This document shows positions 15,761-33,148 of a stretch of 64,000 bases of DNA, piece by piece. The position numbers and the translations under genes were made by a program. Within the stretch, counting starts at the first letter, position 1. Every line of letters begins with the position of its first letter. The stretch lies in IMG/VR virus record IMGVR_UViG_3300019752_000001; one strand, written 5' to 3'. Under the pieces are notes generated by a model. That model had not been told where the DNA came from and ran no database searches. It was given only the letters and a program-made list of their open reading frames with translations. The DNA is from a virus.

Positions 15761-16861
15761 ATGAACCTACCAGATAAAGTTCTACGTAACAAAGCTCGTG
15801 AGCAGGTGACAGAGGCTTGCATTCCAGACCTGATTGTATCCCATATGTCAGGTAGTCATGCGTATGGAATGAACACACCTACCTCTGATGTAGATGTACG
15901 AGGTATCTTCTGTGCCCCTCGTAAGTGCATCTGCACACCATTCAATAACATTAATGAGCAGACTATTCCTTCTATGGAAGACGCTAAAGTGTATGAGGTG
16001 TCCCGATTCATCCAAATGTACACAGATGCTAATCCAAACATCTTAGAAACTTTGTGGGTGGATGAAGAAGATATTCTTACAGGCTCCGAGGCTTACACAC
16101 TACTACGTAACCACAGACAACAACTTTTATCTAAGAAGGTGGCATTTACCTACTCAGGCTATGCACTATCACAACTCAAACGTGTTAAGGGTCATAAGAA
16201 GTGGATTAACAATCCCTGTCCAGTAAACCCACCTAAGCAGAGCGACTACGTAAGCCTTGTACAAAACTTTACAGATGATAAGATTCTTCCTTCTGAGTTC
16301 TCATTAATTAACTATAAAGAAGGTTGTCGTCTAATCCCGTTTGGTAATAATTTGTTTGGTTTGTATGTTGGTGGTAAAGGGGGTGACTACAACACACATA
16401 CAGATGATGGTATGCTCAACATGGTATTTGTTGATGAGAGTCGTGTTGACTGGGGTGCTCCTCAGATGATTGTCAAATGGAACAAGGAAGATTGGGCTAG
16501 GGAGAAAGAAACTCATAAGAACTACTGGACTTGGAAACGTAACCGTAACCCTATACGTGCAGCTCTGGAAGAAGAACATGGTGCAGATATGAAACATGTA
16601 TCACACTTAGTACGCCTACTCCGTAGTGTTGAGGAGATCTTGACAGAAGGTGTTGTCAAGGTAAGACGACCAGACGCTGAAGAACTCCTTGCAATCCGTA
16701 ACGGAAGCTGGCAGTATGATGACATTATCAAGTGGGCTGAGGATAAGGATAAACTAATCCGCACAACACTGTACAACCAAAGTGAGCTTCGTAATAAGCC
16801 TAACCTGAACCTGGCAGGAAAACTTATGATGACTATTCAAGATATATATTGGGAGAAATGA
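15761..16861 (+). CDS. Pol-beta superfamily nucleotidyltransferase (RlaP / Nuc-transf-like)
   Basis: GSHAYGMNTPTSDVDVRGIF, NPNILE, KHVSHLVRLL, LLAIRNG. Confidence 0.85.
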   Translation: MNLPDKVLRNKAREQVTEACIPDLIVSHMSGSHAYGMNTPTSDVDVRGIFCAPRKCICTPFNNINEQTIPSMEDAKVYEVSRFIQMYTDANPNILETLWVDEEDILTGSEAYTLLRNHRQQLLSKKVAFTYSGYALSQLKRVKGHKKWINNPCPVNPPKQSDYVSLVQNFTDDKILPSEFSLINYKEGCRLIPFGNNLFGLYVGGKGGDYNTHTDDGMLNMVFVDESRVDWGAPQMIVKWNKEDWAREKETHKNYWTWKRNRNPIRAALEEEHGADMKHVSHLVRLLRSVEEILTEGVVKVRRPDAEELLAIRNGSWQYDDIIKWAEDKDKLIRTTLYNQSELRNKPNLNLAGKLMMTIQDIYWEK

Positions 16862-16864
16862 AAG

Positions 16865-17642
16865 ATGGAAGGGTATAAAGGTGATATTGATCCGCGTGTT
16901 GAGGGGATGACGCAACTACAAATATCCAGAAGTTTTGTTCATTACAATCTGACAAAGGAAGAAAAGGAGGAAGACTTAGGAAAAAAGAATAAAATTGTAG
17001 AGGAATACATAACGTTCAACTGTTTTGATAAAGAAGAGGCTTTAGTGGGGTTGCAGAGGTTAACTGACCTTATTACTTCGCTTGAGGAGATAGTATGTGT
17101 ATCTATTGGTGATGGAGAAATACGAGTAGTAGGAACAACCTCTGTCAAAATAGATAACATCGAGCATTACATGTACAAATGGCGATCCCAAGTAGCTAAC
17201 CAAGCCTCTTGGCAGAAGGATCACAATGAATACCTACTACTGAAGAAGAAGTTTGAAGGAGAGTAATATGTCTTTACCTGAAACACCTAACCCTGTAGGT
17301 TATAAACTCAACCACCACCCTTCACAGCAAGGACTCTGGTTCAAGTATGACGGAGGTCGCTACAAAGATGTATACAACATTAAGCTTCACTCTGGAGAGG
17401 TGATGTGTAACATGTTTCCTAATGGAAATGGTTGGTTTCCACACTTCGGTAGTGATGACAATGCAGCACATTGTATAGATGAGGATGTTGCAGAAGTTAT
17501 GCTTACACCTGACAAAAACCTTAGTAGGTTCTCACGTACAGGTGTAGCCAGAGTGGAACATAGTGTGAAATTGTTTGGTGATATGGTGCCGTGCATAACT
17601 ACATGTATTCCTCCAGAAACAACCTCGGAGCTCATCCTATGA
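16865..17642 (+). CDS. two hypothetical proteins (16865-17266, ~17268-17642)
   Basis: Coupled ORFs. Confidence 0.5.
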
Positions 17643-18118
17643 CAACTATTGCATACAAAGATGGCGTTATAGCCTACGACTCAAGACGCTCAGCAGGTAG
17701 CTTAATAGTCTGTGATACACAAGATAAGAAGCACATCATCCGCGAAGGAAGGGATGGAAGTACTGAAGGAAGTACTGAAGGCAGTATCATCCTGTTTGCG
17801 TCTGGTGCAGCTAATGATATAGAAAACTTAGTAGCTCACCTTCGAGACAACACCACTAAGCTGCACACAAACAATTATGCTAGCGGGTTGCTTGTTCAGG
17901 ATGGAGTGGTGTATGATATTGGAGTTAACAACACAGACGGGGTGTGGAAGTATGTCTCCTCAGACCCCTGGGCAGATGGGAGCGGACGAGAGTTTGCACT
18001 AGCTGCTATGGATATGGGAGCCTCTGCTAAGAAAGCTGTCAAGCAAGCTATTAAAAGGGATGCTAATTCTGGTGGTAAGGTGAATGTGTTTGTTGTGAAG
18101 GAGAATGATGATGCATAA
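17639..18118 (+). CDS. Ntn-hydrolase, HslV / proteasome-beta-like peptidase
   Basis: N-terminal M-TTIAY...DSR, GSG..FALAAM, D..SGG. Confidence 0.8.
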   Translation: MTTIAYKDGVIAYDSRRSAGSLIVCDTQDKKHIIREGRDGSTEGSTEGSIILFASGAANDIENLVAHLRDNTTKLHTNNYASGLLVQDGVVYDIGVNNTDGVWKYVSSDPWADGSGREFALAAMDMGASAKKAVKQAIKRDANSGGKVNVFVVKENDDA

Positions 18119-18969
18119 TCTCTATGAGGTGTTGGCTAACAACGGGGCTGGTAGTTTCCCTATACTTATAGGGTCTGCGTTTTTGTTGTGTCTAGTCTTA
18201 GCCTTCTTATGTACTGCTTTGTATAAGATAATCGAGGTATACTATTGGATTAATGACTTGCCAACCCCTGTTAAAGCTTTAAAGGGTAAAATTAACAAGA
18301 TGTTTGTTACAAGCTGTCTGTCAGTAGGGGGCTTAGCAATCGGAACAATCATTTACTGGTATCCTCCTCTTCTCTGGGGAATAGTGGTTGCAATAGGGTT
18401 GACAGCCTCAGCTTACACAGCTAGAATGATCCTACGTAAATTGAAGAACAAACAAAACTAAGGAGAAACACATGAACACAATCTCAACAATCATTGAAAC
18501 AGGAACTGTTACATACACTCAAGCCGTATCACTCGGGTGTGTATTAGTTGTGGCTTACGTAGGAACCTACTTTGTTAGTTGGTTGTCCGGTATGGCTTGG
18601 CGATGGATTGATGACATCCCTTCTGAAGTGTTTGTGCATCACCCACTGCTGATGTTGAATCTTAAGATTTTTAAGATTGGTAAGTTGAAGTATGACGGAG
18701 GTTGTAATTGGATGCAGACAAAGGCAAGATACTGGGGTGACAGTAAGCACAAAGGTACTATGGTAGCAGCCTGTACATTCATCTGGCCAGGAGCACTCCT
18801 GTTACTCTTCCTACCACTTACAACTCTGCTTGCAGTAAACAACTTAGTAGTAGTAGGTGTGGCAGCTCTAGCAGTAGGAACTATCTGGTTAGCTCGTACA
18901 GCACGACGTACACACAAAACTCTGAAGTCTCACATGGAAGATCTAGCTGTCCACAAGAAGACTAAATAA
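18105..18969 (+). CDS. two related-looking membrane proteins (18105-18461, 18472-18969)
   Basis: Multiple hydrophobic helices; shared W-I-[ND]-D and AR..-R near the C-terminus. Confidence 0.55.
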
Positions 18970-18991
18970 GAAACTACACAGCCTCCCTAAC

Positions 18992-19012
18992 AAGCCTCTT
19001 AATTGAGGCTTT
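18992..19012 (+). terminator. hairpin / probable terminator
   Basis: AAGCCTC-TTAATT-GAGGCTTT. Confidence 0.55.
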
Positions 19013-19043
19013 CCTCGTAAAAACCTAAACAAGGAGCTACACA

Positions 19044-19337
19044 ATGTCATTAGTAGATGCAGCCTACAAAGCAGCTGAAGAGGAAATCTCTCAGCGCCTA
19101 CCTTCCCCCTCACACAATATCCTCTCCCCTTTGGTGGAAGCTGGACTATGCAGAGAGAAACACTTATGTATGATCCTGAGTAGCCTAGAAACAGCCTATG
19201 AGCAGTTGGTTATGCAGAGTAAGATAAACAATAAGACTTCTTATGAGAGTGTTACAGATGCTGAGAAGAAGCTTAACAATATGCTGGCTGGCAAACCTCC
19301 CTATGCGGGACTGCATAACACAGAAGGAAACTCATGA
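19044..19337 (+). CDS. hypothetical protein
   Basis: AGGAG RBS. Confidence 0.55.
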   Translation: MSLVDAAYKAAEEEISQRLPSPSHNILSPLVEAGLCREKHLCMILSSLETAYEQLVMQSKINNKTSYESVTDAEKKLNNMLAGKPPYAGLHNTEGNS

Positions 19338-19588
19338 ACAACACAACACCAATTACAGTATTAAGTCTTTTCGATGGAATATCATCAGGCCACATAGCCC
19401 TAGACAGGGTGGGAATCCCTGTAGATAAATACTATGCAAGTGAGATTGATAAGTGGGTTATAAAATGCACACAACATAACTACCCAGACACTATTCAACT
19501 TGGTGATGTATGCAGCTGGAGAGATTGGGACATCCCAGCAAACTCTACAGTGAACCCTATAACTACACATAAACCTATTCTTCAATAG
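19334..19588 (+). pseudogene. truncated C5-cytosine DNA methyltransferase (motifs I-III only)
   Basis: VLSLFDGIS, YYASEID, QLGDV, then the frame ends before the catalytic PC motif. Confidence 0.75.
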
Positions 19589-20569
19589 TTATTTCTAATT
19601 ATTGTCACACATAACACAACAATGCTAACTACACCACTATATCCCTCCTTTGCACCATTCCCTTCCTTAGTGTGGCTGACACATTCCCTGTGTTGGCCTC
19701 CTCCACATCCACAAAATATCTGATATATTAATGCTCGCTGTCTAAGACAGAGGTGCTAGTTAGTTAGTACACAATTACACTACATCCCTTTATATATCTA
19801 CCTATCCCCGTAATCCTCTTTAAGCACCTATTAAGTCCCTCTTCCCGATAGGGCCTAAACACACGGCTACTTAACTACTAGCTAGCCCGTTCCCTAGCAC
19901 ACCTCTCCCGTGTAACAACATACACAAACACACATATTAAGAACAACCATCCAATGAAAATATCCCTCGTTAGCTCATTTAATTTATAATTAATTATTAC
20001 ACACTATAAAAGGTTGTATAGTCACCTTCCCTCCCTCTGAAATATACCTCATTCATCTCCTAATCAGCCCCTTCCTCCTCAGAAAATATCTGTAGACAAC
20101 ACACATAATCAAACAGAGGTAGATAGAAATATCTTAATAAGGCTAACTGTATCATATGTAACAGCCAGAGCTATCCAGTAACTTATGGAGGAACCTCTTT
20201 AATTATCTGTGTAGATAGCTTGTCAGGTGTGTTGTATGGCTTCTCTGTAGCTACCGTATAAGGTGTTGCTGATTATTATTGGATCACCGTCCGAGGTGTT
20301 TAACCAGTGCAGCCGAGGTATGTCCTCACTAGCCATAATCTGAAAATATCCTACCGTTAGCCCTATACCTGTACGCTTATTCATTATCTTCTTAGTCGAA
20401 CGCTCACTAACCCTCTGAACAACTATTCAACAACCATGCAGCCTGTAGCCTATCCAGTGTCTTATGTCAACAGCTTTTTAGTCCCATTGACAGCCATGTC
20501 ATAGAGTGCATCTATACATATTCTTTAATGATCATTATGTAGTGTCCTATTCAAAAACAGTCTAAAAAC

Positions 20570-20597
20570 ACTTCGCATAACACCCATTATGTTAAAT
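20570..20597 (+). other. XerC/XerD dif-like recombination site
   Basis: ACTTCGCATAA-CACCCA-TTATGTTAAAT; XerD arm 11/11 and XerC arm 8/11 identical to E. coli dif, 6-bp spacer. Confidence 0.85.
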
Positions 20598-20611
20598 CAG
20601 GAACATATACT

Positions 20612-20627
20612 TGGCATGATGTTTGCT
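20612..20627 (+). promoter_or_regulatory. sigma54 (-24/-12) box 1
   Basis: TGGCATGATGTTTGCT vs consensus TGGCACGNNNNTTGCW. Confidence 0.65.
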
Positions 20628-20691
20628 AAGGTTGTTGAACAGGTGTTATGTAGATAGTTGATTGAGTGTTAAGATGAAATAAATATTCAGT

Positions 20692-20707
20692 TGGCATGGT
20701 AGTTGCT
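20692..20707 (+). promoter_or_regulatory. sigma54 (-24/-12) box 2
   Basis: TGGCATGGTAGTTGCT. Confidence 0.65.
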
Positions 20708-20943
20708 AACTGAAATAGACTGTCTACTTATTGAATAGTCATCTAATAAGTAACTGAATGGTTACTTATTAAAACAGAGGATAGATGAATGAGGGCAAGA
20801 TAATAGGAGGTTGAATGGTTATTCAATAGTTATTCAATAGCCATTCAACTTGAGCAGCTATTCAGGTATAATTGTTGAGGATTTGTACAATTATGTTGGT
20901 AGAATAGTTGAATGAGTGTTTACAGTTGACAGGGAGATTGCGT

Positions 20944-21039
20944 TGTGCTTAACAAAACAAATAACAAAATAACTAAGTGTGCTTAACAAATGTAGTAACA
21001 AAATACTATAGAAACTTCCTCCTGAGTGTGCTTAACAAA
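20944..21039 (+). repeat. 3 x TGTGCTTAACAAA direct repeat
   Basis: Exact 13-mers at 20944, 20978, 21027. Confidence 0.8.
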
Positions 21040-21309
21040 ACAATAGCAAACTAAAAACAAAAACAAAGCCCCCTTAACAGCACTTTGCTATGTGTGCTCT
21101 GTAGGGGCTGTTCCAGCCAGCATTATACAGCGTCTATACAGGCTTTCCTATCCCTCTATGCAGCTCATCTATAGCCCATCTATATATATATATATATATC
21201 AAATGTTCATAAGAAAACCTCTTCTTAGATAATTGAACAACCACCTAACAATAAACAGCATTTACAGGCTTTGCCTGGCAGCCCTTGCGGCTGTCTCTTG
21301 TTAGAGGGT

Positions 21310-21362
21310 TGTTCCATATCCCTTTAGAAGCTCCTGTAAGCCCGTCTAAGCATCTTTAGGTA
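21310..21362 (+). repeat. 53-bp inverted repeat, left copy
   Basis: 52/53 match to reverse complement of 23316-23368. Confidence 0.9.
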
Positions 21363-21454
21363 GGCCCCTTGTGCTAGGTTGTCTTAACAGAGAAAACCAT
21401 AAAGCGCTTGTTCAATAATAATAATTAGGTGTTTGTATTGACATTGGGTAGCTA

Positions 21455-21502
21455 GTGTGTTAGAGGGTGTGTTAGAGGGTGTGTTAGAGGGTGTGTTAGA
21501 GG
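21455..21502 (+). repeat. 4 x 12-bp tandem repeat GTGTGTTAGAGG
   Basis: Exact tandem copies. Confidence 0.9.
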
Positions 21503-21621
21503 GGGTTGTATAGTAATCACTATTGAGAAGGATTCTTGTTTAGAGCATTGTTGAGTATTGTTGAGTGAGAATAATTTTATTCGGAGAATAGTTATTCAGG
21601 TAATAATTTATTCTTTTAGAA

Positions 21622-21696
21622 CAACATAATAGGAAGAATGTACAGGGCTTTTTAGTGACCAAGGGGAACGGTCTGTACATTCTTCCTATTATGTTG
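21622..21696. repeat. perfect 24-bp hairpin with 27-nt loop
   Basis: CAACATAATAGGAAGAATGTACAG / CTGTACATTCTTCCTATTATGTTG. Confidence 0.9.
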
Positions 21697-21929
21697 CCAC
21701 GCTTGCTGTACCCCGCTTCGCTCTATAAGCGTGGCCCTGCCTGAATAGGGGCTGTGTAAGGCTTGTTTAGTCTTAATGTAAAGGGGATAGCAAAAAGCCC
21801 TGTGAGTGGCGTACAGAGGCTTCTAGTTATATATTGAGTGTACGTATAACAATAAAAAAAAAAAACCCCTAACAGGTAGGAGCTTTTATTTATTTTGTTT
21901 GACAGAACTATAAGATGGAGGTTTGTTCT

Positions 21930-22232
21930 TTAAAAATCTTCTGCCGTCATGTACGAACGGCTTTCTATGAAGGTAGTAGTAGTAGTAGAAGGAATACCCA
22001 CCTTTTCAGGCCCCTTAACAACCCCCTTTACATCTATGCTTGTTTTATGCTCTGGTGTTTTGTGTCTTAGTTGGGACAGAGTTTGCAACAGATCTTTTTT
22101 AGTAGTGGCATAACAAGCACTGACAACATTGTGATCCTTTGCATATGTACGACAAGCCTCTAAGGTTGGAAAAGTAGCCGCCTGGCTAGTTGATAGTGAG
22201 AAGGAAACAATAACAGCAAAGATAGTATACAT
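21930..22232 (-). CDS. hypothetical secreted/periplasmic protein
   Basis: Signal-peptide-like N-terminus, two Cys. Confidence 0.55.
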   Translation of the reverse strand: MYTIFAVIVSFSLSTSQAATFPTLEACRTYAKDHNVVSACYATTKKDLLQTLSQLRHKTPEHKTSIDVKGVVKGPEKVGIPSTTTTTFIESRSYMTAEDF

Positions 22233-22342
22233 ATCAGTTCTCTTGTTTGTGTGTTGTTGAGCTCACAGTATAACAGGAAAATAAATAAATAGGGAAAATA
22301 AATTTCTTTTTCTGGTGTCACCCCCCAATTAATTGTTTTCCT

Positions 22343-22750
22343 TTACGAGACTATAGGGAACTCACGAGCTAACATCATCTCTACCACTGAATGTTTATTC
22401 CACATATCAATTCCATTATCAGCAGCCTTTTGCAACCGTGCTTGTATTTTCTTGCTGTTCTTTTGTTTTCTACTGTTAAAGATATTATCAATAATGTCCT
22501 TAACAGCTGTTTTATAGTCTGTCAAGGTGTATAACAAACCACCCTCATAATAATCTGTCATACTATCAGAAACATCCCAATCGAACAGTACGGTATCTTC
22601 CCACGTGTCGCTATCCTGGTTGTCGCTAGGAACAAATACATGGGTTGGGATTGTATTTTTCTGAATGTCGATGATCAGGCCCTTATACTGCACTGTAACT
22701 CCGTGGAGGAAATCTTCATTCGATACGTGGTTGACCAGTTTAGTACTCAT
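22343..22750 (-). CDS. hypothetical early protein
   Basis: AAGGTGAT RBS; upstream TTGCAA-17-TACTAT promoter. Confidence 0.6.
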   Translation of the reverse strand: MSTKLVNHVSNEDFLHGVTVQYKGLIIDIQKNTIPTHVFVPSDNQDSDTWEDTVLFDWDVSDSMTDYYEGGLLYTLTDYKTAVKDIIDNIFNSRKQKNSKKIQARLQKAADNGIDMWNKHSVVEMMLAREFPIVS

Positions 22751-23220
22751 GTTTATCACCTTTGTTTGTGTTGAGCTGATAAAGAGATAGTAACCTCTAT
22801 AGAGGGAGGTTGCAAGGCTTTCTGTTAATAGTTCCTTCTTTCGTGCTTGAGCATATACACCATATTTCTCAGACCATCTACAGCCAGCTGCACATAAAGA
22901 GGGCGGCTAGTGAGATGTAAATACAAGTTTCAAAGTTTACAATAATGTCCAGCATGTTGTTACACCTCCCCCTTAACAAGTTTAACGATGTTAGATACAG
23001 TGATTATCCCAGTGGTAGGTAAAACCACCAGGGTTACAACACTTACACAAAAAGAAATAGGATCAGCTAAACCGAACATAATCATCACCACTTTTTATTG
23101 GAAGGCTGAGTTGCCGTTCCATGTGGTATATAATAGCAGGGTGATTAAGGAGTGCAAGCACTTTTTGAAAAGACTTAGCAGAAGGTTTAGCAACAACAAT
23201 GATAAGAGATTCTAAGAAGT

Positions 23221-23255
23221 TGGCATACTAGGTGCATATAGCAAACCTTATGCCA
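23221..23255. promoter_or_regulatory. head-to-head pair of sigma54 boxes
   Basis: + TGGCATACTAGGTGCA (23221-23236); - TGGCATAAGGTTTGCT (23255-23240). Confidence 0.6.
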
Positions 23256-23315
23256 ACCGTTATGGAATGATCGATTTAGGGTTTTAAGCTCCAACTGATA
23301 CCAATGCAAGTGGGT

Positions 23316-23368
23316 TACCTAAAGATGCTTAGACGGGCTTACAGGAGCTTGTAAAGGGATATGGAACA
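23316..23368 (-). repeat. 53-bp inverted repeat, right copy
   Basis: Partner of 21310-21362. Confidence 0.9.
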
Positions 23369-23764
23369 GACGCTAAACAAAAACCTGTTGAAAGTTTTTG
23401 TTGACATAGAATTTTATTTGTGTAACCTTGTTTGCCTGTTCAAAGGGCGTTCTTGAAAGATTGCTAAGGAATGACTATTCCATAGTACCTATTCAGGAAT
23501 GACTATTCAATAAGGGCGTTTAAGAACAGATGATCAATTACAGAGGTCTATTCCTGAATAGGTGTTCCTTAATAGCCCTTTCTGCAGTAAACAGTAATAG
23601 TAGAATTGTTGAATACCCCTTCTCTTATTCGATTGAAAAATTAAATAAGGAGGGAGGGTTCAAATTACTCTACACTCCAGTATCTGAAAACCTCCTTATT
23701 ACAAAAATTTTCCAACTCTTTACAGCTTAGTAATTCCCTGTACTATTCCTGCGTGGTTGTTTTA

Positions 23765-24493
23765 TCACGCCGTTGTCATAAGCTGTTCATAGTTTGACAA
23801 CTGGTCTTTACTATTAATAGTCATCTGCTTTTTAGTCTTTCTGCCGGGGACATCCACCCATACAGTAATGGCTTGACTCAGGATAGCCCGTCTAACACTG
23901 ACACGTTTAAACCATTCAGGCTCTTCTATAGCATACTCAGTTTTACTTGTCCAGCTAGACGGGATAGCTAGATACTTCCCTGTATGCTTCTTGTCTACCA
24001 CCTCTGCACGTGCAAACCAGCTTTTATACGTGGCGTAGTACGCCCTGTAAGCCTCTACAGGGCATTTTAAACGTTTAGAAATACTATCAGGCATGGCCTT
24101 AGCAAAAGCCGTCATATGGCCCCCTGGGACGGATGAAGGGGCTACACTGAAATGATTAATAATCTTTACAAGGTCTTTATGTGCATCCACACGGCCCGAA
24201 CGCTTTTTAGCTTCACTATCAAGGGCTTTTGCAAGCTCTACACCAAAAACCCAGTTGTCAACACACTCTGATAGCCACACACTACAGGGGTGATTCCAGT
24301 AGCCCGGCTTCTTGACTTTTGGGTCTGCTAGCTCTACAGGGTTCATACCAGCGACTATTGTACGGGCTTCTAGCATCTGGCGTAGTTCGCTGATTATCTT
24401 GTTTACATGTTCATTGCAGTACGATTTAGCAATTCGGCTGCACCACACAGGGAGCGTGTCATCCTGCCTGTGTTCTAGGATGAAGATGTTCAT
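23765..24493 (-). CDS. pyrimidine-dimer DNA glycosylase (DenV / Pyr_excise)-like protein
   Basis: MNIFIL...HVNKIISE..QML, NHPCSVW, AMPD, VEAYRAYY. Confidence 0.7.
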   Translation of the reverse strand: MNIFILEHRQDDTLPVWCSRIAKSYCNEHVNKIISELRQMLEARTIVAGMNPVELADPKVKKPGYWNHPCSVWLSECVDNWVFGVELAKALDSEAKKRSGRVDAHKDLVKIINHFSVAPSSVPGGHMTAFAKAMPDSISKRLKCPVEAYRAYYATYKSWFARAEVVDKKHTGKYLAIPSSWTSKTEYAIEEPEWFKRVSVRRAILSQAITVWVDVPGRKTKKQMTINSKDQLSNYEQLMTTA

Positions 24494-24543
24494 AGTATCA
24501 CCAGAAAATAATAAAGGTTAATAACAAGTTTACAGTTTAATCA

Positions 24544-24814
24544 TTAAAAACTTTGAGTTGAAAGAGTGTTAGACATACAACGTACTAATTCTAGTGTGGT
24601 CATACACTCACAGATTCCCTTAAGAGCAACTGTCCGCACAAAGACTGGGGATTTTTCATCATTAATAGTATTTAATACTAAGTCCCAACCCGTCACCCCC
24701 TGGAGATTCTCCAGCATATTGAAACTCTGCATCGTAGAACAAAACAGCAGACTTTATCTCCGAAATTATTGCATTACGTGTTTCTGTATCCAACTGCTGG
24801 AAATTAGTAGTCAT
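24544..24814 (-). pseudogene. early gene with probable 1-nt frameshift
   Basis: GGTGAT RBS + ATG 24814 (MTTNFQQLDT...) joins the 24544-24732 frame if one T is removed from a T4 run. Confidence 0.4.
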
Positions 24815-24837
24815 AGCATCACCTTATAACGGTTTTG

Positions 24838-24901
24838 TTAAATTGTCTTTCTAAACAGGGCTTAGATATTACAAAACCCTGAGTAGAAAAGCAACTAAAC
24901 T
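24838..24901 (-). promoter_or_regulatory. promoter stem-loop cassette repeat, copy 1
   Basis: TTGCTT-17-TAATAT inside an inverted repeat; identical to 25231-25294. Confidence 0.85.
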
Positions 24902-24913
24902 GCCCCTTAAAAC

Positions 24914-25204
24914 TTATTTAAACAACTCCCTTTTAAGCTTTTCTACAGTTCTTTTTCCAACCGCTCTGTATGGTTTGTGCCAGTCTTTATTATTTGCTCT
25001 TACACGATAACCAGCAGCCTCTAAAGCTTCCTGTACAGCCTGATAATCCCCAGGGTTTCCGTATTTGTAGGGTATTTCGTAACTTTCTTTATTAATCATA
25101 ACTTCAGCGTCATGATAAGTGTTTCCATTAAGTTTGTCGCGCCATTCACCAAACAGAATAAAAACTTCATCTTTGCTTGACAACACTTTCAATTTAGTAG
25201 CCAT
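24914..25204 (-). CDS. hypothetical early protein
   Basis: AAGGTGAT RBS; flanked by identical 64-bp repeats. Confidence 0.65.
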   Translation of the reverse strand: MATKLKVLSSKDEVFILFGEWRDKLNGNTYHDAEVMINKESYEIPYKYGNPGDYQAVQEALEAAGYRVRANNKDWHKPYRAVGKRTVEKLKRELFK

Positions 25205-25230
25205 GATTCATCACCTTGTTTCATGTTGTA

Positions 25231-25294
25231 TTAAATTGTCTTTCTAAACAGGGCTTAGATATTACAAAACCCTGAGTAGAAAAGCAACTAAACT
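25231..25294 (-). promoter_or_regulatory. promoter stem-loop cassette repeat, copy 2
   Basis: 64/64 identical to copy 1. Confidence 0.85.
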
Positions 25295-25537
25295 TTAAAC
25301 TGTAATAGTACTATTTTCATTGCATGACCATCTATCACCTTTCGCTATCTTAAACCCCATGTATTCTGTACCTCTTATACTACACTGTTTCTGTACAGCC
25401 TCCCTTGCTACTTGACAGGCGTTATAAATAGATAATCGACCATCAACCTGGAAGTTTAAGGAGCTTCCACAACTCATAATAAGTTCACCCTGATTGGTTA
25501 CACTGCGTTGCATAGCTGTAACATAGTAAGTAGACAT
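25295..25537 (-). CDS. hypothetical early protein
   Basis: GGTGGTGAT RBS. Confidence 0.6.
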   Translation of the reverse strand: MSTYYVTAMQRSVTNQGELIMSCGSSLNFQVDGRLSIYNACQVAREAVQKQCSIRGTEYMGFKIAKGDRWSCNENSTITV

Positions 25538-25565
25538 ACTGATCACCACCTTGTTTCATGTTGTA

Positions 25566-25625
25566 TTAAATTGTCTTTCTAAACAGGACTGCAATAATAA
25601 ACAATCCTGAGTAGAAAAGCAACTA
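25566..25625 (-). promoter_or_regulatory. promoter stem-loop cassette repeat, copy 3 (diverged)
   Basis: TTGCTT-17-TATTAT; compensatory changes in the inner stem. Confidence 0.8.
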
Positions 25626-25635
25626 TAACCTCTGT

Positions 25636-25737
25636 TTATTTAGCCTCGCTGTCTAGATACGTCCGTTTACGGTTGCGTTCATTCCGTCGCTTCTTAACTT
25701 CCTTTCGTTGCTTCTTGCTTAGCCGTTGCTGTGTCAT
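25636..25737 (-). CDS. 33-aa Arg/Lys-rich peptide (not in ORF track)
   Basis: AGAGGT RBS; MTQQRLSKKQRKEVKKRRNERNRKRTYLDSEAK*. Confidence 0.55.
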   Translation of the reverse strand: MTQQRLSKKQRKEVKKRRNERNRKRTYLDSEAK

Positions 25738-25769
25738 TTTTTGTGTACCTCTTTATCGTTGATTGTTTA

Positions 25770-26391
25770 TCACGTTTTCCAGCAGGTTACAGGGGTTATT
25801 GTCAACCCTCTGTAACCTACCCTCTTTATCCTCTTGTTTCCTCTGTCCTGCATTTCCAGGCCAGACAAAACCCTCAGAAACCAACCAAGTTGCATCCCTG
25901 TATAGACCTGTACAACATCTTTATCATCCAGCTGTATAATCACCTTGTAATGCTTGTCCTTATCTATTTGGTGGCCATACTCTGACAAAGGATCACCACC
26001 TAGACAGCACGGCGTTAGAGGGCCTACGCTGGCTGTAGCTGCCTGTCTCATACTCTTTTTGTATATCTGTTCAGCTTTAGCCTGTAGTGTAGCTTGTTCT
26101 CTATCCATCATCTAGGCCCCTGTCAGTGATTAGGCAGGTACTTACAAGCTCCAGATGATCAGGAGAAGCTTGCACGCTATACAGGTTCCAAACCTCTAAG
26201 GGTTGGTGTTTGTACAAGTTTCCTTTGTACCGGAAGGTATAGAGCTTATCAACAGGGTTGCCCTTTACAGTGGTATTACTTCGTAACTTCTTACCTACCC
26301 ACCAGGTGGTTATTACAAAGCCTGCAACGAATATTAGTTGAGCAATAGGCACTGTTTCCCAAAGATTTGACAACGTGATTAAAGTATCCAT
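25770..26391 (-). CDS. two hypothetical early proteins (26101-26391 membrane-anchored; 25770-26111)
   Basis: Coupled ORFs. Confidence 0.5.
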
Positions 26392-26405
26392 GTTGTACGC
26401 CTCTG

Positions 26406-26972
26406 TTAAATATTGTACAAGTATTCGGCGATACGCCGAATCACAGGGCTGTCGTACAAGCTGTAGTCCGTAGACGCCCAGACATTCAAACCACAAAAAT
26501 CCTCATCAATGGTTTCACCTTGTTCAGCTAACTTTTCGCAGAGGAAATTACTAACAGACCAGTGGTTCATAATCTCTACAGGCTCAACATCTATATTCTG
26601 TTCTTGACAAAGATCCACCCAGCTATCTGCATAACTTACTTCTAACACTTCCCCATCAGCGCTGTCTGTCACCTGAAAATTGTACTCCTCTTCCTCCTCA
26701 GAGATATTCCAACCTTCTCCCTTTGCTGCAGCTTGTGCGTTTTCTTCAGAAAGTGGTGCACAATTAAGCGCTATCACTTGTTCAAGTTCACCCTGATCCT
26801 GTTCAGAACTGCTAGCCAAGCGTCCTACAACCTCAACCATATAGGATACTTGACAAAAAATTTCCCGGTCCACCAGACGAGCAATAATCTCCTGTATAGC
26901 TTCTTTCTTAGTTTCTTCAGAGATTGCAACAGCGTTCTGAATAGTGTTCTGGGTGGCATTTTGAGTAGACAT
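26406..26972 (-). CDS. highly acidic early protein
   Basis: AAGGTGAT RBS; E/D-rich; HWSVSNFLCEKLAEQGE. Confidence 0.65.
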   Translation of the reverse strand: MSTQNATQNTIQNAVAISEETKKEAIQEIIARLVDREIFCQVSYMVEVVGRLASSSEQDQGELEQVIALNCAPLSEENAQAAAKGEGWNISEEEEEYNFQVTDSADGEVLEVSYADSWVDLCQEQNIDVEPVEIMNHWSVSNFLCEKLAEQGETIDEDFCGLNVWASTDYSLYDSPVIRRIAEYLYNI

Positions 26973-27055
26973 ATTATCACCTTGTATTGTGTTTAGCCTG
27001 TATCGGCTATGTGTTGTAAATAGTCTTCTTTACATACCTGTAAAGTTTCTACGAA

Positions 27056-27098
27056 AGAGGCTGTATATTATCTTCTAAGCTAAAAGATTACAACCTCT
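27056..27098 (-). promoter_or_regulatory. sigma70 promoter within a hairpin
   Basis: TTGTAA-17-TAATAT flanked by AGAGGTTGTA / TACAGCCTCT. Confidence 0.65.
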
Positions 27099-27117
27099 TT
27101 GATGCAAACTTTTTCGG

Positions 27118-28665
27118 TTAAAAGATTTCCATGTTATCTAACCACTCCTCGAAACTTGCTTGACTCATCCCCGCACAATAGAGACTTTTAGCTTCTTTAC
27201 GGTTTGTTGGTACAGGATACTTATTGTACCTATAGTCAAAAACATCACAAGCCTCTTTTCGTTCTTTTTCGCTACGGAAGACTAATAAATCTCCGTTACA
27301 GCTATAGCAACCTGTAACAGGATGGGGGCTACCGATAGTTGCATTATCCCCCACCCACGCCAAAAACACACGTTTAACATCTTTTACCATAAGAATATTC
27401 ATTGTGTAGCTCCTTGTACTATTTTTCAGATAAAGATCAAACTTACCAGTAACAGTCCCAGTAACGCCATCCAAAGTACGTTATGCTTGCTACCTTTGAT
27501 GTGGTTCATATTAATCCCCCTGGCGTGGACTGTCAAGTAAAAACCCATAAGTATTTTCTAAATCAACCTTTATACTTTTAGCCCGTGACTGTAACACTGT
27601 AGCAATAGCTTTAAGCATCAAAGGCTGCAACTCTACCATATCCTGATCAGAAATGCCAAGCTGTTTTATAGATGCTGCATTACCATACAACTCTAACATA
27701 CCACCATCAACCATTTTCAGAGCTTTTAACATGAGGTCGTGCTCATTTCGTTTAGCCTGTACCTGGTCCATTTCCTGCCGGGTGGTTATTGAACGTTTCA
27801 TGGTACATCTCCTTGAGTTTCTGATTGTACAGGGTAGTAATAACCCTATCTACATTACAACCCCTTACACCTACTTTTTTCAATAACTTTGGAGTAACGT
27901 TGGTAAGCAGTGTAATAGATGTAGTACGTATTGTCAATTTGTTTTTCTGCTGTAAAACTACCAATGATTGAACGAGCCATCTCTATTCCCTATTCAGTGT
28001 GTTGTGATTGTGTTAGGAACTAACTTTTTCATAACAACTACATTATAACCTGAATAAATCTGTTTGAACAACTTTAGCAAATCTCTATACTCATTATCTA
28101 CCACCTTGACAGCGGTTGTGCGGTCACGGTAATAATCATACTCACCTGTTGCGTGTTCACCATGATTAAAAAACACTAAATCACTCTTATACGCCGCCCC
28201 TTCCCAAAACACAATAGATAAATTATACGGGGCTTTTTCTTGTCTGATAACAACTTTCAGTGTAGGTTTTTGAGTGGACATAATCATCACCTGTTAGCTA
28301 GGGGTTGTTAATTGTCTTAACGAGGAAGCTGTATTCTTGCACAGCTTCCTGATTAAAGCAACTGTTTAATGTACAGCTTTACGGATCATAACAGGTACAG
28401 TCTGCCCCTTCAAACCTTTAGCAGAGGTTTTTATGATCCCTCCACAGGCTTTCTGTACGCCCTCTGCCGGGCCATACAAGTCAACCACTGCCCAGCGCTT
28501 GCCGTTCTCAACTGCATCCTGAAGCGGCTGTAGTTTATATTTACCAAACAGCTCCTGGGCAGCCTTACTTTTAAGGTCTACCAGTTTGTCCCGATCAGTA
28601 CATTTTGATCGGGCGATTGCACGGGTCTGGTAAATAGTCACAGCAGAGCCAGTAAAGTTGTTCAT
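27118..28665 (-). CDS. four hypothetical early proteins (27118-27402, 27511-27801, 27994-28281, 28366-28665)
   Basis: Each has an RBS; spaced by promoter-bearing intergenic regions. Confidence 0.55.
28309..28365 (-). promoter_or_regulatory. promoter stem-loop cassette repeat, copy 4
   Basis: Same outer arms (TTGCTTT...AAGACAATT), TTGCTT-17-AAGAAT, different inner stem AGGAAGCTGT / ACAGCTTCCT. Confidence 0.7.
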
Positions 28666-28857
28666 AATATCACCTTGTTAGTAGCTAGGGGGCTGCCTGT
28701 TTGGCTTGCCCTGTTGATGAGATATATATTAGCAGGTCTTACCAGGATGTAAAGAGGAAATGTTAAACAGGTGAGAAATAATTAGGGCAAGTTTTACCCC
28801 TCCCTTCTATATAGGTAGGTTTTAACACGATGAATTAACACTGGATAGGGCTGATGT

Positions 28858-29153
28858 GGAGCGTATGCTCAATAGTTAATGGTATGAGGGTTCACTCAAA
28901 GGGTTACGATATGAGTGTTTATTCAAGGGCTGTTGAGCGGACGTTCATCTTGTTGTGGAAAGGTTGCTCAATAAATAGGGAAAATAATTGAGCGAGTGTT
29001 TAAGAATATGGTTGAGCGAGCGTTTCATAACTATTTGGTAGGTAATACTCTGCGATTTCAAATCCGAAATCAACACAGCTATAAAAAATTTTTAGTAATC
29101 TTTCATTAACTTGTTGAGCAAACATTTCATAATTATTGTTGAGCTTGCGTTAC
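28858..29153. repeat. array of ~9 TGARY-N4-RYTCA-type palindromes
   Basis: Starts at 28858, 28885, 28912, 28934, 28957, 28989, 29013, 29115, 29140. Confidence 0.7.
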
Positions 29154-29216
29154 AGTGTAAGAATAAGATATAATTACTGTGATAGTGGATCTGAAAGTCG
29201 TGTCGTTATAAAAATT

Positions 29217-30041
29217 TTAAGGTTTTATTATTCCATCTTTTAAACATTGTTCGTACTCTTCAAGGTAGGATTTAGGGAATTTCCTTGACCTGTAACCTTT
29301 GTAGATATTATTACAATGAACCAATACAGCTTTTGGTGTAATACCTTTCTTGTGTAAACTGATAAAAATTGTTGTTTCCTCTTCTGTTAAAACATTGTTA
29401 TTAGCCCCAACTCCTACCATCATCAATTTGCAAACGTCTCACAAAGGCTTACAGAGAGTCTGAGACAGAGAGGTAGTTTGTAGAGTTGTATATACTACCT
29501 CCTCTCTTGTTAAGAATACTCCAGCACAGCAAATGGGTGCTCTGTGTCAGGACTTTGATTAACATAGTGATCCAACAAACTGTTTAAACTCTTAATTGTA
29601 TCAGACTGGATGATCAGTTCCATCTCCAATTTCTCAATGTAGGTTTCAATTATTTGTGCATCACAGGCTTGCAAGTTTTCCAACGTAGCAAACACTATAG
29701 CAGGTCTTGCATCCAACCCTTTACCTTTACTCTCTTTCATTAGTTTCTCCTATCATAAATGAAGGCAGCCACTGCCTAGCCCACTCAATATCTTCTCTGT
29801 AACTACTGATCAGAATTACAGCCTCACCTAGTTGGTTATTCAAAATACTACGTCTAGTAATCTCCGCAGCAATCTGACTATCAGCACTGCCTCCAATCTT
29901 TTTCAGCTCAACATTCCAAGCATAAAGTTTCAAAAGTTCCTTATCTGAAATTAACATCTGTTCTTCAAGCTTGACAGCAGCGTTAGTTACATTTGCTAGT
30001 TCTCTCTTTGAATCCTCAGCATAACTGCTAATAATATGCAT
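29217..30041 (-). CDS. three small hypothetical proteins
   Basis: ORFs 29217-29426, 29510-29740, 29727-30041. Confidence 0.45.
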
Positions 30042-30160
30042 ACCAATTACAAGTATACTCAGGATAATAACCCACTCGGTAAAAGATTTTTTTATTTCCT
30101 ATAACCAGAAACCCTATTACAACAAACAAAGAGACAACTCCTACCAAGTGTACAGTTTCT

Positions 30161-30550
30161 TCAATCATCTTCCTGCTCCACAAGGCCATACTTCAGCATA
30201 ACCGCCTCACACACTGCCATACGCAACATCTGGCTAGCTGATGATCCAGATGTTGGGAACCAACTACCTGAGTATGTGTATACTAGAGGATCACTAAGCC
30301 ATTGTTCTTCAACCTCACTCCATTCAATAGCCACCTGGCCCTCTTCATGAACAACATCCAACTTCTCCTTCATCATAAGTGTCATACAGTCTGCTGCTGA
30401 TGACCATGGATCAAACCGGCTACCATCTGATAAGATGATCTTTACAGAAGAAGCTAAATCACCATCGTAGATTGTAACCTCCTTAACTTCAGATAGTAGT
30501 TCTGCGATAGCAATCAAAACTTGTTTAGGTGTCATATCAGTGAACTTCAT
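30161..30550 (-). CDS. NinX / DUF2591-like protein
   Basis: FDPWSSAADCMTLM...RMAVCEAV. Confidence 0.5.
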   Translation of the reverse strand: MKFTDMTPKQVLIAIAELLSEVKEVTIYDGDLASSVKIILSDGSRFDPWSSAADCMTLMMKEKLDVVHEEGQVAIEWSEVEEQWLSDPLVYTYSGSWFPTSGSSASQMLRMAVCEAVMLKYGLVEQEDD

Positions 30551-30591
30551 AGGTTTTCTCCTTTATAGTATTATTAGTGTTATTACTCTTA

Positions 30592-31429
30592 TTACGTATT
30601 CCCGCTAGTTAGCCCGCTCTTAGTGAGCGGTGTACGCTCTACAAATACAGCTCGATCTTCACTAACAACGGTGTAGGTGTATACATAGCGCTCATCTTTC
30701 ACTGGCCCCCAACTTTCAACCTTGATCAACCCTTTGATTGCAGAGCCTTGCAGAGTTTTGTTATGGAGAGGGCCGCCTATTAGAGTATACATGTTATTAG
30801 TCATAAATTCTTACCTTGTTCATTTAAATAACAATAGAATAGGGTTACACAATCACCTGTCAAGATAAAACTTCACCAACCACCCCTTCAGCTATAATTC
30901 TACACTGTTGACTAGAAACACCTTCACCAATTTGTAACAGTTGTTCCTGTATAGAAGCTATAGCTTGTAACTTTTTATAGGCAGTAACCTTGTCCATAAC
31001 TACCTGTTTCTTCTTGCTGGTGTTATAGGCTTCTCTGGTTTCAGCCATCTCTGAGATCATATTGGTGAAGGTAGCTGATAATTCATCTGTAAATGCCTTC
31101 CCTTCTAACACTGCGAACAATTCTTCCCAACCAGATACACCTGTAATAACGAGGAAGGGGTGCTGCCGTTTATCTCCGTTCTTATCAGAATACTCCTTGC
31201 GGAATAGTTTGAACAAGTACCCTTCGAAGCAGAGAGGTTTTTCAGCACACCTTGTAATAGTAAACCTTGCACCGCAATACTTAGAATGAAGGAGTATTGT
31301 GGTAGTAGTCCAGAAGTTATCCACTTTCGATATTGTAAACATTTCATCTTCAGAGCAGAGATTGTTCAGTTTACTCAATAGTAATTTAGCTGTTTGCATT
31401 TCACCGGAATGTTGTATCGGGGTTGTCAT
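30592..31429 (-). CDS. two hypothetical proteins (30592-30804, 30860-31429)
   Basis: Each preceded by a TTGACA promoter. Confidence 0.55.
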
Positions 31430-31469
31430 TATGATTATCCTCTGATCGTTTGCTATAAACTCTACCTGA

Positions 31470-31498
31470 ATATTACAACTGTTAAGTGTTCCTGTCAA
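31470..31498 (-). promoter_or_regulatory. sigma70 promoter
   Basis: TTGACA-17-TAATAT. Confidence 0.75.
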
Positions 31499-31642
31499 AC
31501 ACTATTCACATTTTACTACTCATTCTACAAGCTTATATTCCCTATGTACAAGGCGTTTTAATCATCCCTTATACAATCACACTACTCATATGTTAAAACC
31601 TCTCACAGAGGCTTACAGAGCGTCTCAGACAGTCACACATAG

Positions 31643-31698
31643 AAAAGCCTCAACCATTCCCTCTCAGATTAATTAAGAAGGGGTGGTTGAGGCTTTTT
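31643..31698. terminator. bidirectional terminator
   Basis: AAAAGCCTCAACCA...TGGTTGAGGCTTTTT. Confidence 0.8.
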
Positions 31699-31708
31699 GT
31701 GTATAGCA

Positions 31709-32321
31709 TTACCAACTTACTACGGTGTAAGGAGGTGTAGCATCCCAGTGAGTATTAACTGTGTAGCCTAATGAAAATAGATACCTAATAACTTCGTTTT
31801 CATTTCCTGTTAAAAGTTTTTCCAGTTGCACACAGGTTTTACCCTTTTCGGAGGCTTCGGTGATTAGAGTGTTAAGCTCCTCAAGATCTAGCAGGGCTCC
31901 CTCTTTTAGTTCCTCTCCCCTCTTGGACAGGTATTCATCAACCAAGTGTTTAGCTCTCAGGGCACTGATAACCATACTAAGTAATATCCTCTCTCAGGTT
32001 CTCTTTAAGCAGGTGACTCGTTGTGTTCTGACTCATGAACAATCTCTCAGCCCAGTCTCCCTCACGAGGATTGAAACCACTAACACTACCTTCACAGATA
32101 AGCTTATGCAAAACGTTCAACTGCTCCACTAATGCATCATGCTGGTTAATGGCTAAGGCAATATTCTGTGCAGCTTGTTCTGTTTCCTCTTTTCCACAGT
32201 AGTTACGGATGTTAACACCGAACCAAAGGTAATTAACCAACACTCCTTCACTGTCAGGTTTCAGGTTGTAAACTGTCGAATGTTCAGCTTTAACATCTGG
32301 GTAGTTATTTTTGATAGTCAT
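31709..32321 (-). CDS. two hypothetical proteins (31709-31975, 31977-~32321)
   Basis: Coupled ORFs. Confidence 0.5.
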
Positions 32322-32739
32322 GTTTGTTCCTCTTCTTAAACCAGAACACAATAGGGGTTGTCTTGACAACAATCTGACCAAACCTCTCAGCAGTTCTGAA
32401 GTTTACACTACTATTACGTCCACGCTCAACTTGCTTCTCAAGCTCCTTCCTAAATTCCTCCACAGAAAAACACACTCTTGGATAAGTTGCAAGGAGCACA
32501 TGACGAAACCATATTATCCAGTGTATCTATAAATCTTCATGCTGCATATCTCCTGTAAATCTCACCTCTGTCTAGTGAATATTCTTCCGTTCATGCACAG
32601 GAACTATCTCAGACTTCCTATGTATAGGATGAAAGTGGTCAACATGCCAGCCCTTTTAAGGAAGCTGACAACCACAATACCAGCAGATTCCGTTAGACTT
32701 ATTCCATACCAGCTGCCTAGTTTTCTTAGATATTGCCAT
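32305..32739 (-). pseudogene. HNH endonuclease, disrupted
   Basis: MAISKKTRQLVWNKSNGICWYCG..*KGWHVDH...CAPCNLSK with two in-frame stops and frameshifts. Confidence 0.75.
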
Positions 32740-32742
32740 TAG

Positions 32743-33148
32743 TTAGTTTCCTCTGATCCCTGTACTGCTGATACAACATAGGCTTTCTGGACAAGGAAGA
32801 TACATAACATCTACCCCCCAAACCTGTTGAGCGTGACGAGTCATAGCTTGCTCATATTCGAAGTCTTTTGTGTCACGTAATCCTCTTACTACAACCTCCA
32901 CGTTTTCAGACTTCAAGTAATCACCGAGATCAGAATCTTTTCTGTAGGTAACTTGGGTGTTATGTAAATGTGACACCTCCTCCCAAAAGTAATCTGCCCT
33001 ATCCTCTCCAGAGGTATCGTAAACCTTATCAGGGTTATCCGCAACAACCACTAACAGTTCAAAACCCAACCAGTTACACATCTCTACTACCCCAGAGGTG
33101 CCCTTCGTGTACAGGGTTAAAACTCCTTATAAATGCAACCTTTTTCAT
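32743..33148 (-). pseudogene. coaD: phosphopantetheine adenylyltransferase (CoaD), split by a +1 frameshift
   Basis: ATG 33148 gives MKKVAFIRSFNPVHEGHLW (HxGH); removing one G from the G4 run (33090-33093) joins VVVRGLRDTKDFEYEQAM...ISSTGIR. Confidence 0.8.

Follow-up and report, generated by a model that had tools for sequence, protein, structure and literature searches.

The stretch of DNA analysed in this study (the window) comprises 64,000 nt of the virus record IMGVR_UViG_3300019752_000001, and the region in question extends from 19589 to 29216. At its left end, a gene-free junction carries a site resembling the XerC/XerD recombination site dif, promoter boxes of the sigma-54 (RpoN) type and a cluster of RAAATATC repeats. 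The open reading frame (ORF) map revealed three gene-free blocks of 2341, 673 and 551 bp (blocks 1 to 3; Table 1), in which only ORFs of 66 aa or less were present. The + strand genes stop at 19588, the - strand array ends at 21930 and the turning point of the GC skew is located between them; block 1 is therefore a convergent junction. An earlier note on this DNA had listed three non-coding blocks, a palindrome family, a dif-like site, four sigma-54 boxes, long inverted repeats, four copies of AAAATATC and short - strand genes with their own promoters, and all of these items were found in the present analysis.

The dif-like site, ACTTCGCATAA-CACCCA-TTATGTTAAAT, is present as a single copy in the window. 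The XerD arm was identical to that of dif (11/11), the XerC arm matched at 8 of 11 positions (19 of 22 in all), and the two arms are separated by a 6-bp centre; shuffled sequences never reached a match of at least 17/22. Seven of the eight GGGNAGGG motifs located between 8121 and 46618, which resemble FtsK-orienting polar sequences (KOPS), pointed toward this site; these motifs are few, and are confounded by the G skew.

In addition to the two tandem sigma-54 boxes at 20611 (+) and 20691 (+), boxes were found in block 2 at 23220 (+) and 23256-23240 (-). Three of the four fitted a strict pattern for which 0.085 occurrences were expected, and the fourth was recovered with a looser pattern (four found versus 0.7 expected). 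The three strict boxes (TTGGCATGatgtTTGCT, TTGGCATGgtagTTGCT and TTGGCATAaggtTTGCT) have GG at -24, GC at -12, the exact spacing between them and an extended consensus, YTGGCACGrNNNTTGCW. Outside the blocks, four copies of TTGGCAT were present without the TGC element. The copies of AAAATATC were confirmed at 19713, 19957, 20083 and 20343, and a fifth RAAATATC copy (GAAATATC, at 20126) was added to them. The five copies share the + strand and fall in a span of 630 bp, compared with five more in the remaining 61 kb.

The large genes of the window encode a ribonucleotide reductase, an ATP-dependent ligase, a tRNA nucleotidyltransferase, a second nucleotidyltransferase, a Dda-like helicase, a nicotinamide phosphoribosyltransferase, a primase-helicase and a family-A polymerase (PolA). 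PolA shared 54% identity with its counterparts in Aeromonas phages of the 2L372D group and 48-49% with those of several Vibrio myophages, and the nucleotidyltransferase shared 45-49% identity with the proteins of Pseudaeromonas phage KLEP7, of Vibrio phages and of the rV5-like phages PVP-SE1, SSE121, Av-05 and Hena1. On the basis of these protein identities, the phage is placed as a distant member of the rV5-like supergroup (an rV5-/2L372D-like myovirus), and not as a relative of T5. No tRNA genes were found in the scan of the window. Nucleotide searches with 19590-23800 against phages (near and distant modes) and plasmids gave no match, and a search of IMG/VR with three window proteins gave no close relatives. 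Among 80 distant relatives recovered from a metagenome scan (652 kb), none had a strict sigma-54 box and the sole dif-like match was at noise level (17/22).

Spacers of clustered regularly interspaced short palindromic repeats (CRISPR) that match window positions 21664-21696, 22980-23012 and 23860-23891 were present on contigs of a microbial-mat metagenome (X3). Two of these spacers adjoin a type I-E repeat, GTGTTCCCCGTATGCACGGGGATGAACC, of which exact copies are found in Vibrio sp. MEBiC08052 and V. ruber. An X3 spacer also lies beside a type I-F repeat, GTTCACTGCCGGATAGGCAGCTTAGAAA, which is present in the same Vibrio genomes with 2 mismatches. From these repeats, the host is likely to be a Vibrio of the MEBiC08052 or V. 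ruber kind. Both candidate host genomes harbour rpoN (PF04552), and the candidate hosts have two dif sites (dif1 and dif2) with a XerD arm identical to that of the window site.

A gap of 1-2.3 kb was observed a few kb past the nucleotidyltransferase gene in the relatives G001, G003, KLEP7, 496E54-1, 2L372D and PVP-SE1; it measures 2.24 kb in PVP-SE1 (116552-118792), 2.2 kb in G003 and 1.1 kb in G001. Block 1 has the same layout, being a gene-free convergent junction of about 2 kb downstream of the nucleotidyltransferase array. There was no DNA alignment by blastn between the window region and the related loci. The elements of block 1 nevertheless recur in these gaps. Sigma-54-type boxes (TTGGCAY-N6-TGC) were confined to the junction in G001 and in KLEP7 (3/3 genome-wide in each), single consensus boxes were present in the gaps of 2L372D (a perfect TTGGCATGaaagTTGCA) and PVP-SE1, and KLEP7 also carries a 37-nt face-to-face unit like that of block 2. 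Same-strand RAAATATC clusters were located upstream of the dif-like site or box in G001 and KLEP7; 496E54-1 has such a cluster within its gap. The exact XerD arm, TTATGTTAAAT, was found in the gaps of G001, G003 and 2L372D, with full dif-like sites in G001 (20/22) and in G003 (20/22, with a 7-bp centre). In G004 (L005:8478-8920), two sigma-54 boxes occupy a divergent intergenic region, with GTGACA/TGTCAC inverted repeats between them, and the ribosome site and start codon of a protein gene follow ~45 nt downstream of each box; this arrangement looks like a classic enhancer-dependent promoter pair, with the spacing expected of working promoters.

In rV5-like relatives, these elements are located at annotated genome ends. 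The PVP-SE1 gap, 4 kb past the nucleotidyltransferase gene, contains AAAATATC twice, followed by TTGGCACGatgaTTGCA and then by GGTGCGTATAA-CGTGTA-TTATGTTAAAT (21/22), and in a blastn search several records matched this 361-nt module at their ends. In Erwinia phage Hena1, a 22/22 dif site (289-316) and a copy of AAAATATC (470) fall within the annotated 'direct terminal repeat 1' (1-519), and a second copy is just outside it. In Klebsiella phage DP, a 20/22 dif-like site (274-301) and a copy of AAAATATC (465) fall within the repeat_region (1-514), and two further copies are outside it. In both phages the annotated border is 42 nt past the last AAAATATC copy. A 514-bp repeat with doubled coverage and T7-type packaging has been reported for KPP-1 (PMC9862379). 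The phi92-like phage BME3, with a 342-bp repeat, had no dif-like site, and the device is therefore tied to a lineage and is not universal among myophages with short repeats. Within that lineage, dif-like sites with 19-22 of 22 arm matches are present in the window, G001, G003, PVP-SE1, Hena1 and DP. These sites are non-random, their position and order are conserved, and the AAAATATC repeats and dif-like site (plus sigma-54 box) that the window shares with its relatives lie there in or at the annotated repeat.

The combination was also found in an unrelated phage. Pattern scans of IMG/VR for a dif-like site plus a box gave mostly chance matches, the exceptions being G001 and L232:960-1300 (IMGVR_UViG_3300025889_003561). 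The latter is a fragment with HK97-type head genes (terminase, portal, protease-capsid), which has tandem AAATATCTTAA repeats, face-to-face sigma-54 boxes and a full dif-like site within 150 nt; the face-to-face pair spans 36 nt, and a third box and a second XerD arm 75 nt away are also present. This recurrence suggests that the repeat-box-dif combination is a functional unit. Separately, a consensus sigma-54 box was seen within ~60 nt of a dif-like site on two IMG/VR contigs (L106:3590-3660 and L046 near 6977).

By analogy with these relatives, we think it on balance probable that block 1 is the counterpart of the rV5-like convergent gap that holds the physical ends of the linear genome, with a short direct terminal repeat that has a XerC/XerD site near its centre. 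The 42-nt border offset in Hena1 and DP leads to a predicted repeat that would cover about 20.30-20.88 kb (Table 1), with the dif-like site near its centre and both tandem boxes inside. The RAAATATC repeats would then stand at and beyond its left border. In the run X2, the unitig covering 20302-21362 had a depth of 7.68 compared with ~5 for its neighbours, which is a weak hint for such a repeat and perhaps noise; depth figures in this study are unitig means from Logan contigs and not read-level depth. The gap at 20251-20301 between two X2 contigs is no evidence for a repeat border.

With such a repeat at both of its ends, the injected linear genome would carry a pair of Xer sites in direct orientation. 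By recombining them, host XerCD could delete one copy of the repeat and close the circle, as Cre-lox is able to do for P1, and could later resolve multimeric circles. In P1, Cre-loxP cyclises terminally redundant DNA and resolves dimers. As in P1, circularisation of the injected DNA could proceed independently of RecA through a site-specific recombination site in the terminal redundancy; unlike in P1, the recombinase would be that of the host, and no integrase-family gene was found among the window proteins scanned. The window site resembles chromosomal dif and the plasmid sites cer and psi in its 28-bp core, with a XerC arm, a 6-bp centre and a perfect XerD arm equal to that of the candidate host dif1 and dif2. 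It differs from them in being carried by a large phage of the lytic type, probably within a terminal repeat, and in its proposed job, which would be the closing of a linear genome and not dimer resolution alone.

The sigma-54 boxes, which would depend on a host activator, would start non-coding transcripts that run into the palindromic, A+T-rich part of the junction, and one box would also drive the three-gene cassette described below. Transcription of the junction may serve replication priming or concatemer processing, like the promoters near the ends of T7; whether its role would be priming, concatemer processing or a checkpoint is speculation, as is the suggestion that the RAAATATC repeats are a terminase or activator site.

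Several observations weigh against this interpretation. Xer recombination normally requires FtsK or accessory proteins. The XerC arm of the window site matches dif at just 8/11 positions, only a XerD arm with one mismatch was present in KLEP7 and 496E54-1, and no XerD arm was found in the parts of G002 and G004 searched. No sigma-54 activator (PF00158) was detected in five relatives or among the window proteins scanned, and a host activator would therefore be needed. No activator site was identified for the boxes, nothing known binds the RAAATATC repeats, and host promoters of the same strict sigma-54 type lack these repeats. The dif-like and sigma-54 motifs could also be read by phage proteins instead of host factors. 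The predicted repeat and its borders are drawn from relatives that are only 45-50% identical in marker proteins. Furthermore, the 2L372D record starts 2.2 kb inside the + array, the packaging mode of the 2L372D cluster has been reported as unknown (PMC6669705), and headful packaging was inferred in one vequintavirus report (PMC13211470).

Six exact copies of the palindrome TGARY-N4-RYTCA were found in the window versus 1.68 expected, five of them inside blocks 1 and 3; with one mismatch allowed, 17 of 45 copies fell in the three blocks, which represent 5.6% of the window. The earlier note had described one palindrome family shared by all three blocks. The family is real and enriched there, yet its motifs are unevenly spread, TGAATAG being common to blocks 1 and 2 and TTGAGC being mostly in block 3, and so it is not uniform. 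The palindromes are specific to the window phage and were absent from the relatives that keep the Xer site. They are more likely to be read by a phage regulator than by ArgR, though their core equals that of the ARG box.

A phage-specific regulatory and terminator region, in which XerCD and sigma-54 would have no part and the motifs would either be recognised by phage proteins or resemble host sites by chance, is unlikely but survives best among the alternatives. It accommodates the phage-specific palindromes and the missing sigma-54 activator; a DNA-binding protein of PHROG 624 adjoins block 2, and the 37-nt unit made up of the face-to-face boxes is a palindrome to which a dimer could bind. 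There is also a precedent for a look-alike, as an Arg-box look-alike beside the loxP of P1 did not bind ArgR (PMC2409434). On the other hand, phages of Vibrio, Aeromonas-type, Salmonella, Erwinia and Klebsiella hosts retain the asymmetric XerC and XerD arms around a centre that varies between 6 and 7 bp. The GG-N10-GC spacing of the boxes is exact and their extended consensus is preserved, and the TTGGCAT copies outside the gaps have no TGC element.

A replication origin is rated slightly lower, as rather unlikely, and could coexist with a terminus. Tandem promoters would here prime or activate initiation in A+T-rich DNA with palindromes and iterons, as at the primary origin of T7 or at T4 oriF/oriG, and the Xer site would resolve circular dimers only. 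Plasmid Xer sites are often located near origins, and the two tandem boxes of block 1 are followed by palindromic DNA of 33% GC and by a tract with 48% A. The boxes of KLEP7 and 2L372D likewise face A+T-rich DNA with long inverted repeats, and the replication genes are of the T7/T5 type (PolA and primase-helicase). Against an origin, there were no DnaA boxes and no initiator gene beside the zone, the annotated termini of the relatives fall in the module, and the polarity of the GC skew is of the terminus type, though the skew follows transcription here.

It is improbable that block 1 is a multimer-resolution site of the cer type, at which the palindromes would be ARG boxes for ArgR (with PepA), Xer would act in resolution only and the nearby promoter would make a checkpoint RNA, like Pcer/Rcd. 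The palindrome core TGAAT-N4-ATTCA does equal the ARG-box core, the promoter boxes abut the Xer core, and an ARG-box-like palindrome, TGAACAACTATTCA, lies 138 bp from the XerC arm, compared with 98 bp in cer (PMC2409434). However, its flanks and G/C-containing centre fit TNTGAATWWWWATTCANW poorly, about 17 copies over three blocks far exceed what cer needs, the palindromes are missing in the relatives that keep the Xer site, and the Xer centre is 6 bp long, as in dif and psi, versus 8 bp in cer.

The earlier note had interpreted the region as a T5-like terminal repeat of ~9.5 kb and had expected about twofold depth across it. In X1, the deepest run and probably the source metagenome, internal repeats split the assembly graph into unitigs, and each segment therefore has its own depth. 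Positions 16000-21357 were in a 55.5-kb unitig with a depth of 217.9 and 25558-33000 in a 41-kb unitig with a depth of 199.6, compared with 195.4 for 21474-23345, 199.6 for 23321-24867 and 194.2 for 25265-25576. As the depth of the inner unitigs was not doubled, there is no collapsed 9.5-kb repeat; a repeat of a few hundred bases within the long left unitig would stay invisible in unitig means. The region resembles the T5 terminal repeat in having repeat- and palindrome-rich non-coding DNA, probably close to a genome end, beside many small, early-looking genes with their own promoters. Nevertheless, a long terminal repeat with pre-early genes and an injection-stop region over ~19.6-29.2 kb is largely refuted and scarcely credible, given the flat depth, the absence of A1-, A2- or dmp-like genes (PHROG, Pfam) among the island proteins tested, the short repeats of the relatives (342-519 bp) and a phage lineage that is not T5-like by PolA and nucleotidyltransferase. 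The other part of the proposal, a region that controls entry or packaging and makes use of XerCD and RpoN from the host, is a fair reading in view of the conserved XerCD-type site, the sigma-54 boxes and the homologous layout; the scale and model of T5 had to be abandoned.

The coordinates of the features are presented in Table 1.

Table 1. Features of the junction and of the adjoining island (positions in the window).
Feature	Position	Strand	Remarks
Block 1, 2.3-kb gene-free convergent junction, predicted genome-terminus zone	19589..21929	.	ORF map, skew turn, equivalent gap in relatives
Five same-strand RAAATATC repeats in a pyrimidine-rich tract	19713..20350	+	Same-strand clusters in gaps of G001, KLEP7, 496E54-1, PVP-SE1, Hena1, DP
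Predicted short direct terminal repeat, roughly 0.5-0.6 kb	~20301 to ~20870-20900	.	Analogy with Hena1 and DP repeat geometry
dif/cer-type XerC-XerD core site	20570..20597	+	19/22 arm match; equivalents in G001, G003, PVP-SE1, Hena1, DP, L232
Two tandem sigma-54-type -24/-12 boxes, pointing right	20611..20627 and 20691..20707	+	
TGAAT-N4-ATTCA palindrome and hairpin cluster, A+T-rich (33% GC)	20744..20922	.	
Three direct repeats TGTGCTTAACAAA... in an A-rich tract (48% A)	20944..21054	+	
Left arm of the 62-nt inverted repeat, phased TNTAAG hexamers; unitig break here	21310..21371	+	
12-bp tandem repeat GTGTGTTAGAGG, ~4.5 copies	21443..21514	+	
Perfect 24-bp inverted repeat, 27-nt spacer; right arm is a CRISPR protospacer (21664-21696)	21622..21696	.	
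Strong intrinsic terminator closing the - strand array	21850..21887	-	
Three small genes between the 62-nt arms: 43-aa hydrophobic peptide, 138-aa acidic protein, 100-aa protein with signal-peptide-like start; sigma-54 box upstream	21930..23091	-	
Block 2: face-to-face sigma-54 boxes (23220-23256, 37-nt unit), right 62-nt arm (23307-23368), TGAATAG palindromes	23092..23764	.	
242-aa protein, PHROG 624 (annotated DNA-binding protein)	23765..24493	-	E = 5e-27; no Pfam or PDB match
Small ORFan gene array, several with own promoter, many with GGTGAT Shine-Dalgarno	24544..28665	-	
Three 83-nt repeats (24815, 25208, 25543), similar to promoter-early-stem-loop (PeSL) units	24815..25625	-	81-100% identity
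Block 3: seven TTGAGC repeats and five TGARY-N4-RYTCA copies	28666..29216	.	

The long inverted repeats of the region have arms of 62 nt, 24 bp and 34 nt, the last at 23467/23550. The 62-nt arms (21310-21371 and 23307-23368) are 94% identical and enclose a segment of ~2 kb with a sigma-54 box, the three small genes, the strong terminator, the 12-bp tandem repeat and the 24-bp hairpin. These arms were considered as transposon ends or as the borders of an invertible segment, and the idea was rejected: no target duplication was visible by eye in the flanks, no recombinase was found and the depth was not doubled. The mobility of the segment is therefore unproven. A 59-nt piece of the 55.5-kb X1 unitig ending at 21357 also fitted window positions 31570-31628 on the opposite strand; the same loose end was present in X1 and X2, and this match is therefore a dispersed inverted repeat. 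Long inverted repeats were also seen in the junction gaps of KLEP7 (L010:22520-22700) and 2L372D (L228:3290-3500), both Aeromonas-type, with arms sharing ATATAACCAA / TTGGTTATAT. A motif, CTAGACGGACA, is conserved just within the annotated terminal-repeat border of PVP-SE1 (L244:14600-14625), Hena1 and DP (L245, L246), and the 62-nt inverted repeat of the window holds the similar CTTAGACGGGC.

For the island between 21.9 and 29.2 kb, the best reading is an end-proximal variable region of ORFan single-gene cassettes. None of the 20 island proteins tested matched a Pfam family, and the single PHROG match was to PHROG 624. A sigma-70-like promoter precedes several island genes, and the distinct ribosome-binding site seen earlier is GGTGAT, which occurs 12 times in 7.4 kb of the island versus 14 times in the next 25 kb (about three times denser on the same strand), mostly at start codons. 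In each of the 83-nt repeats, TTGCTT-N17-TAATAT is combined with a GGTGAT site and with a hairpin whose loop contains the -10 element, and one small gene follows each repeat. The unitig depth doubles on the core common to these repeats, a compensatory change is present in the stem (CAGGG/CCCTG to CAGGA/TCCTG), and the same design was found upstream of 27994-28290. The promoter-hairpin cassettes could be shuffled by recombination between their repeats. PeSL units of T4-type phages consist of a sigma-70 promoter and a stem-loop and, as in the window, repeated units flank single ORFan genes in a variable region (PMC2839356, PMC4122927). The window units differ from these in belonging to an rV5-like lineage, in having the -10 element in the hairpin loop and in carrying a GGTGAT ribosome site in each unit.

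RNA-based explanations were also considered. Rfam gave only three sub-threshold chance matches, including CRISPR-DR22 at 29054-29087 (E = 0.087), and as it gave no match for them, the LuxO/Qrr and Y-RNA ideas were dropped. RNA fold z-scores of -3.5 and -4.8 reflect the palindromes and cannot separate RNA from DNA structure. Generic promoter and terminator scans showed no enrichment over shuffles.

The short terminal repeats of rV5-like phages are already known and are annotated routinely. Like the repeats of the Vequintavirinae (Hena1, 519 bp; DP, 514 bp; KPP-1, 514 bp), the window junction is a gene-free convergent gap past the nucleotidyltransferase gene with a matching order of AAAATATC repeats, sigma-54 box and dif-like site, which in those phages is within the annotated repeat (PMC9862379). 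It differs from them in that the phage is just 45-50% identical in marker proteins, with no alignable DNA, and in that its repeat is predicted by analogy; the two tandem boxes, the palindromes and the cassette flanked by the 62-nt inverted repeats are extra to the window. The window adds to this that the elements are conserved in a Vibrio phage that is only distantly related, and that their three-part order includes the sigma-54 boxes. As the module spans enterobacterial phages and this distant Vibrio-mat phage, long-standing selection can be argued.

In the literature search, no paper was found that reports host dif in rV5-like repeats, or sigma-54 boxes and a fixed repeat motif travelling with dif. 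Phage Xer sites were found only in small integrating phages, with no report of sigma-54 promoters in such phages. Phages exploiting Xer as integrative mobile elements (IMEX), such as CTXphi, VGJphi, gokushoviruses and non-tailed vibriophages, share with the window phage a phage-borne dif-like site that uses host XerCD; they are small integrating elements, whereas the window phage is ~140 kb and shows no sign of integration.

A broader proposal, which we regard as doubtful, is that RAAATATC repeats, sigma-54 boxes and a XerCD site form a widespread, undescribed end-processing element of large lytic phages, in which XerCD would circularise the genome and a host-gated sigma-54 transcript would couple circle formation, the start of replication or concatemer cutting to the state of the host. 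If this is true, the presence of the module in the unrelated HK97-type fragment would make it a mobile device that is used convergently. If these genomes are closed by host XerCD, the first step after injection would require a host recombinase in a large group of strictly lytic phages, one that is in therapeutic use, and this would have a bearing on host range, on resistance through xer or rpoN mutations and on phage engineering.

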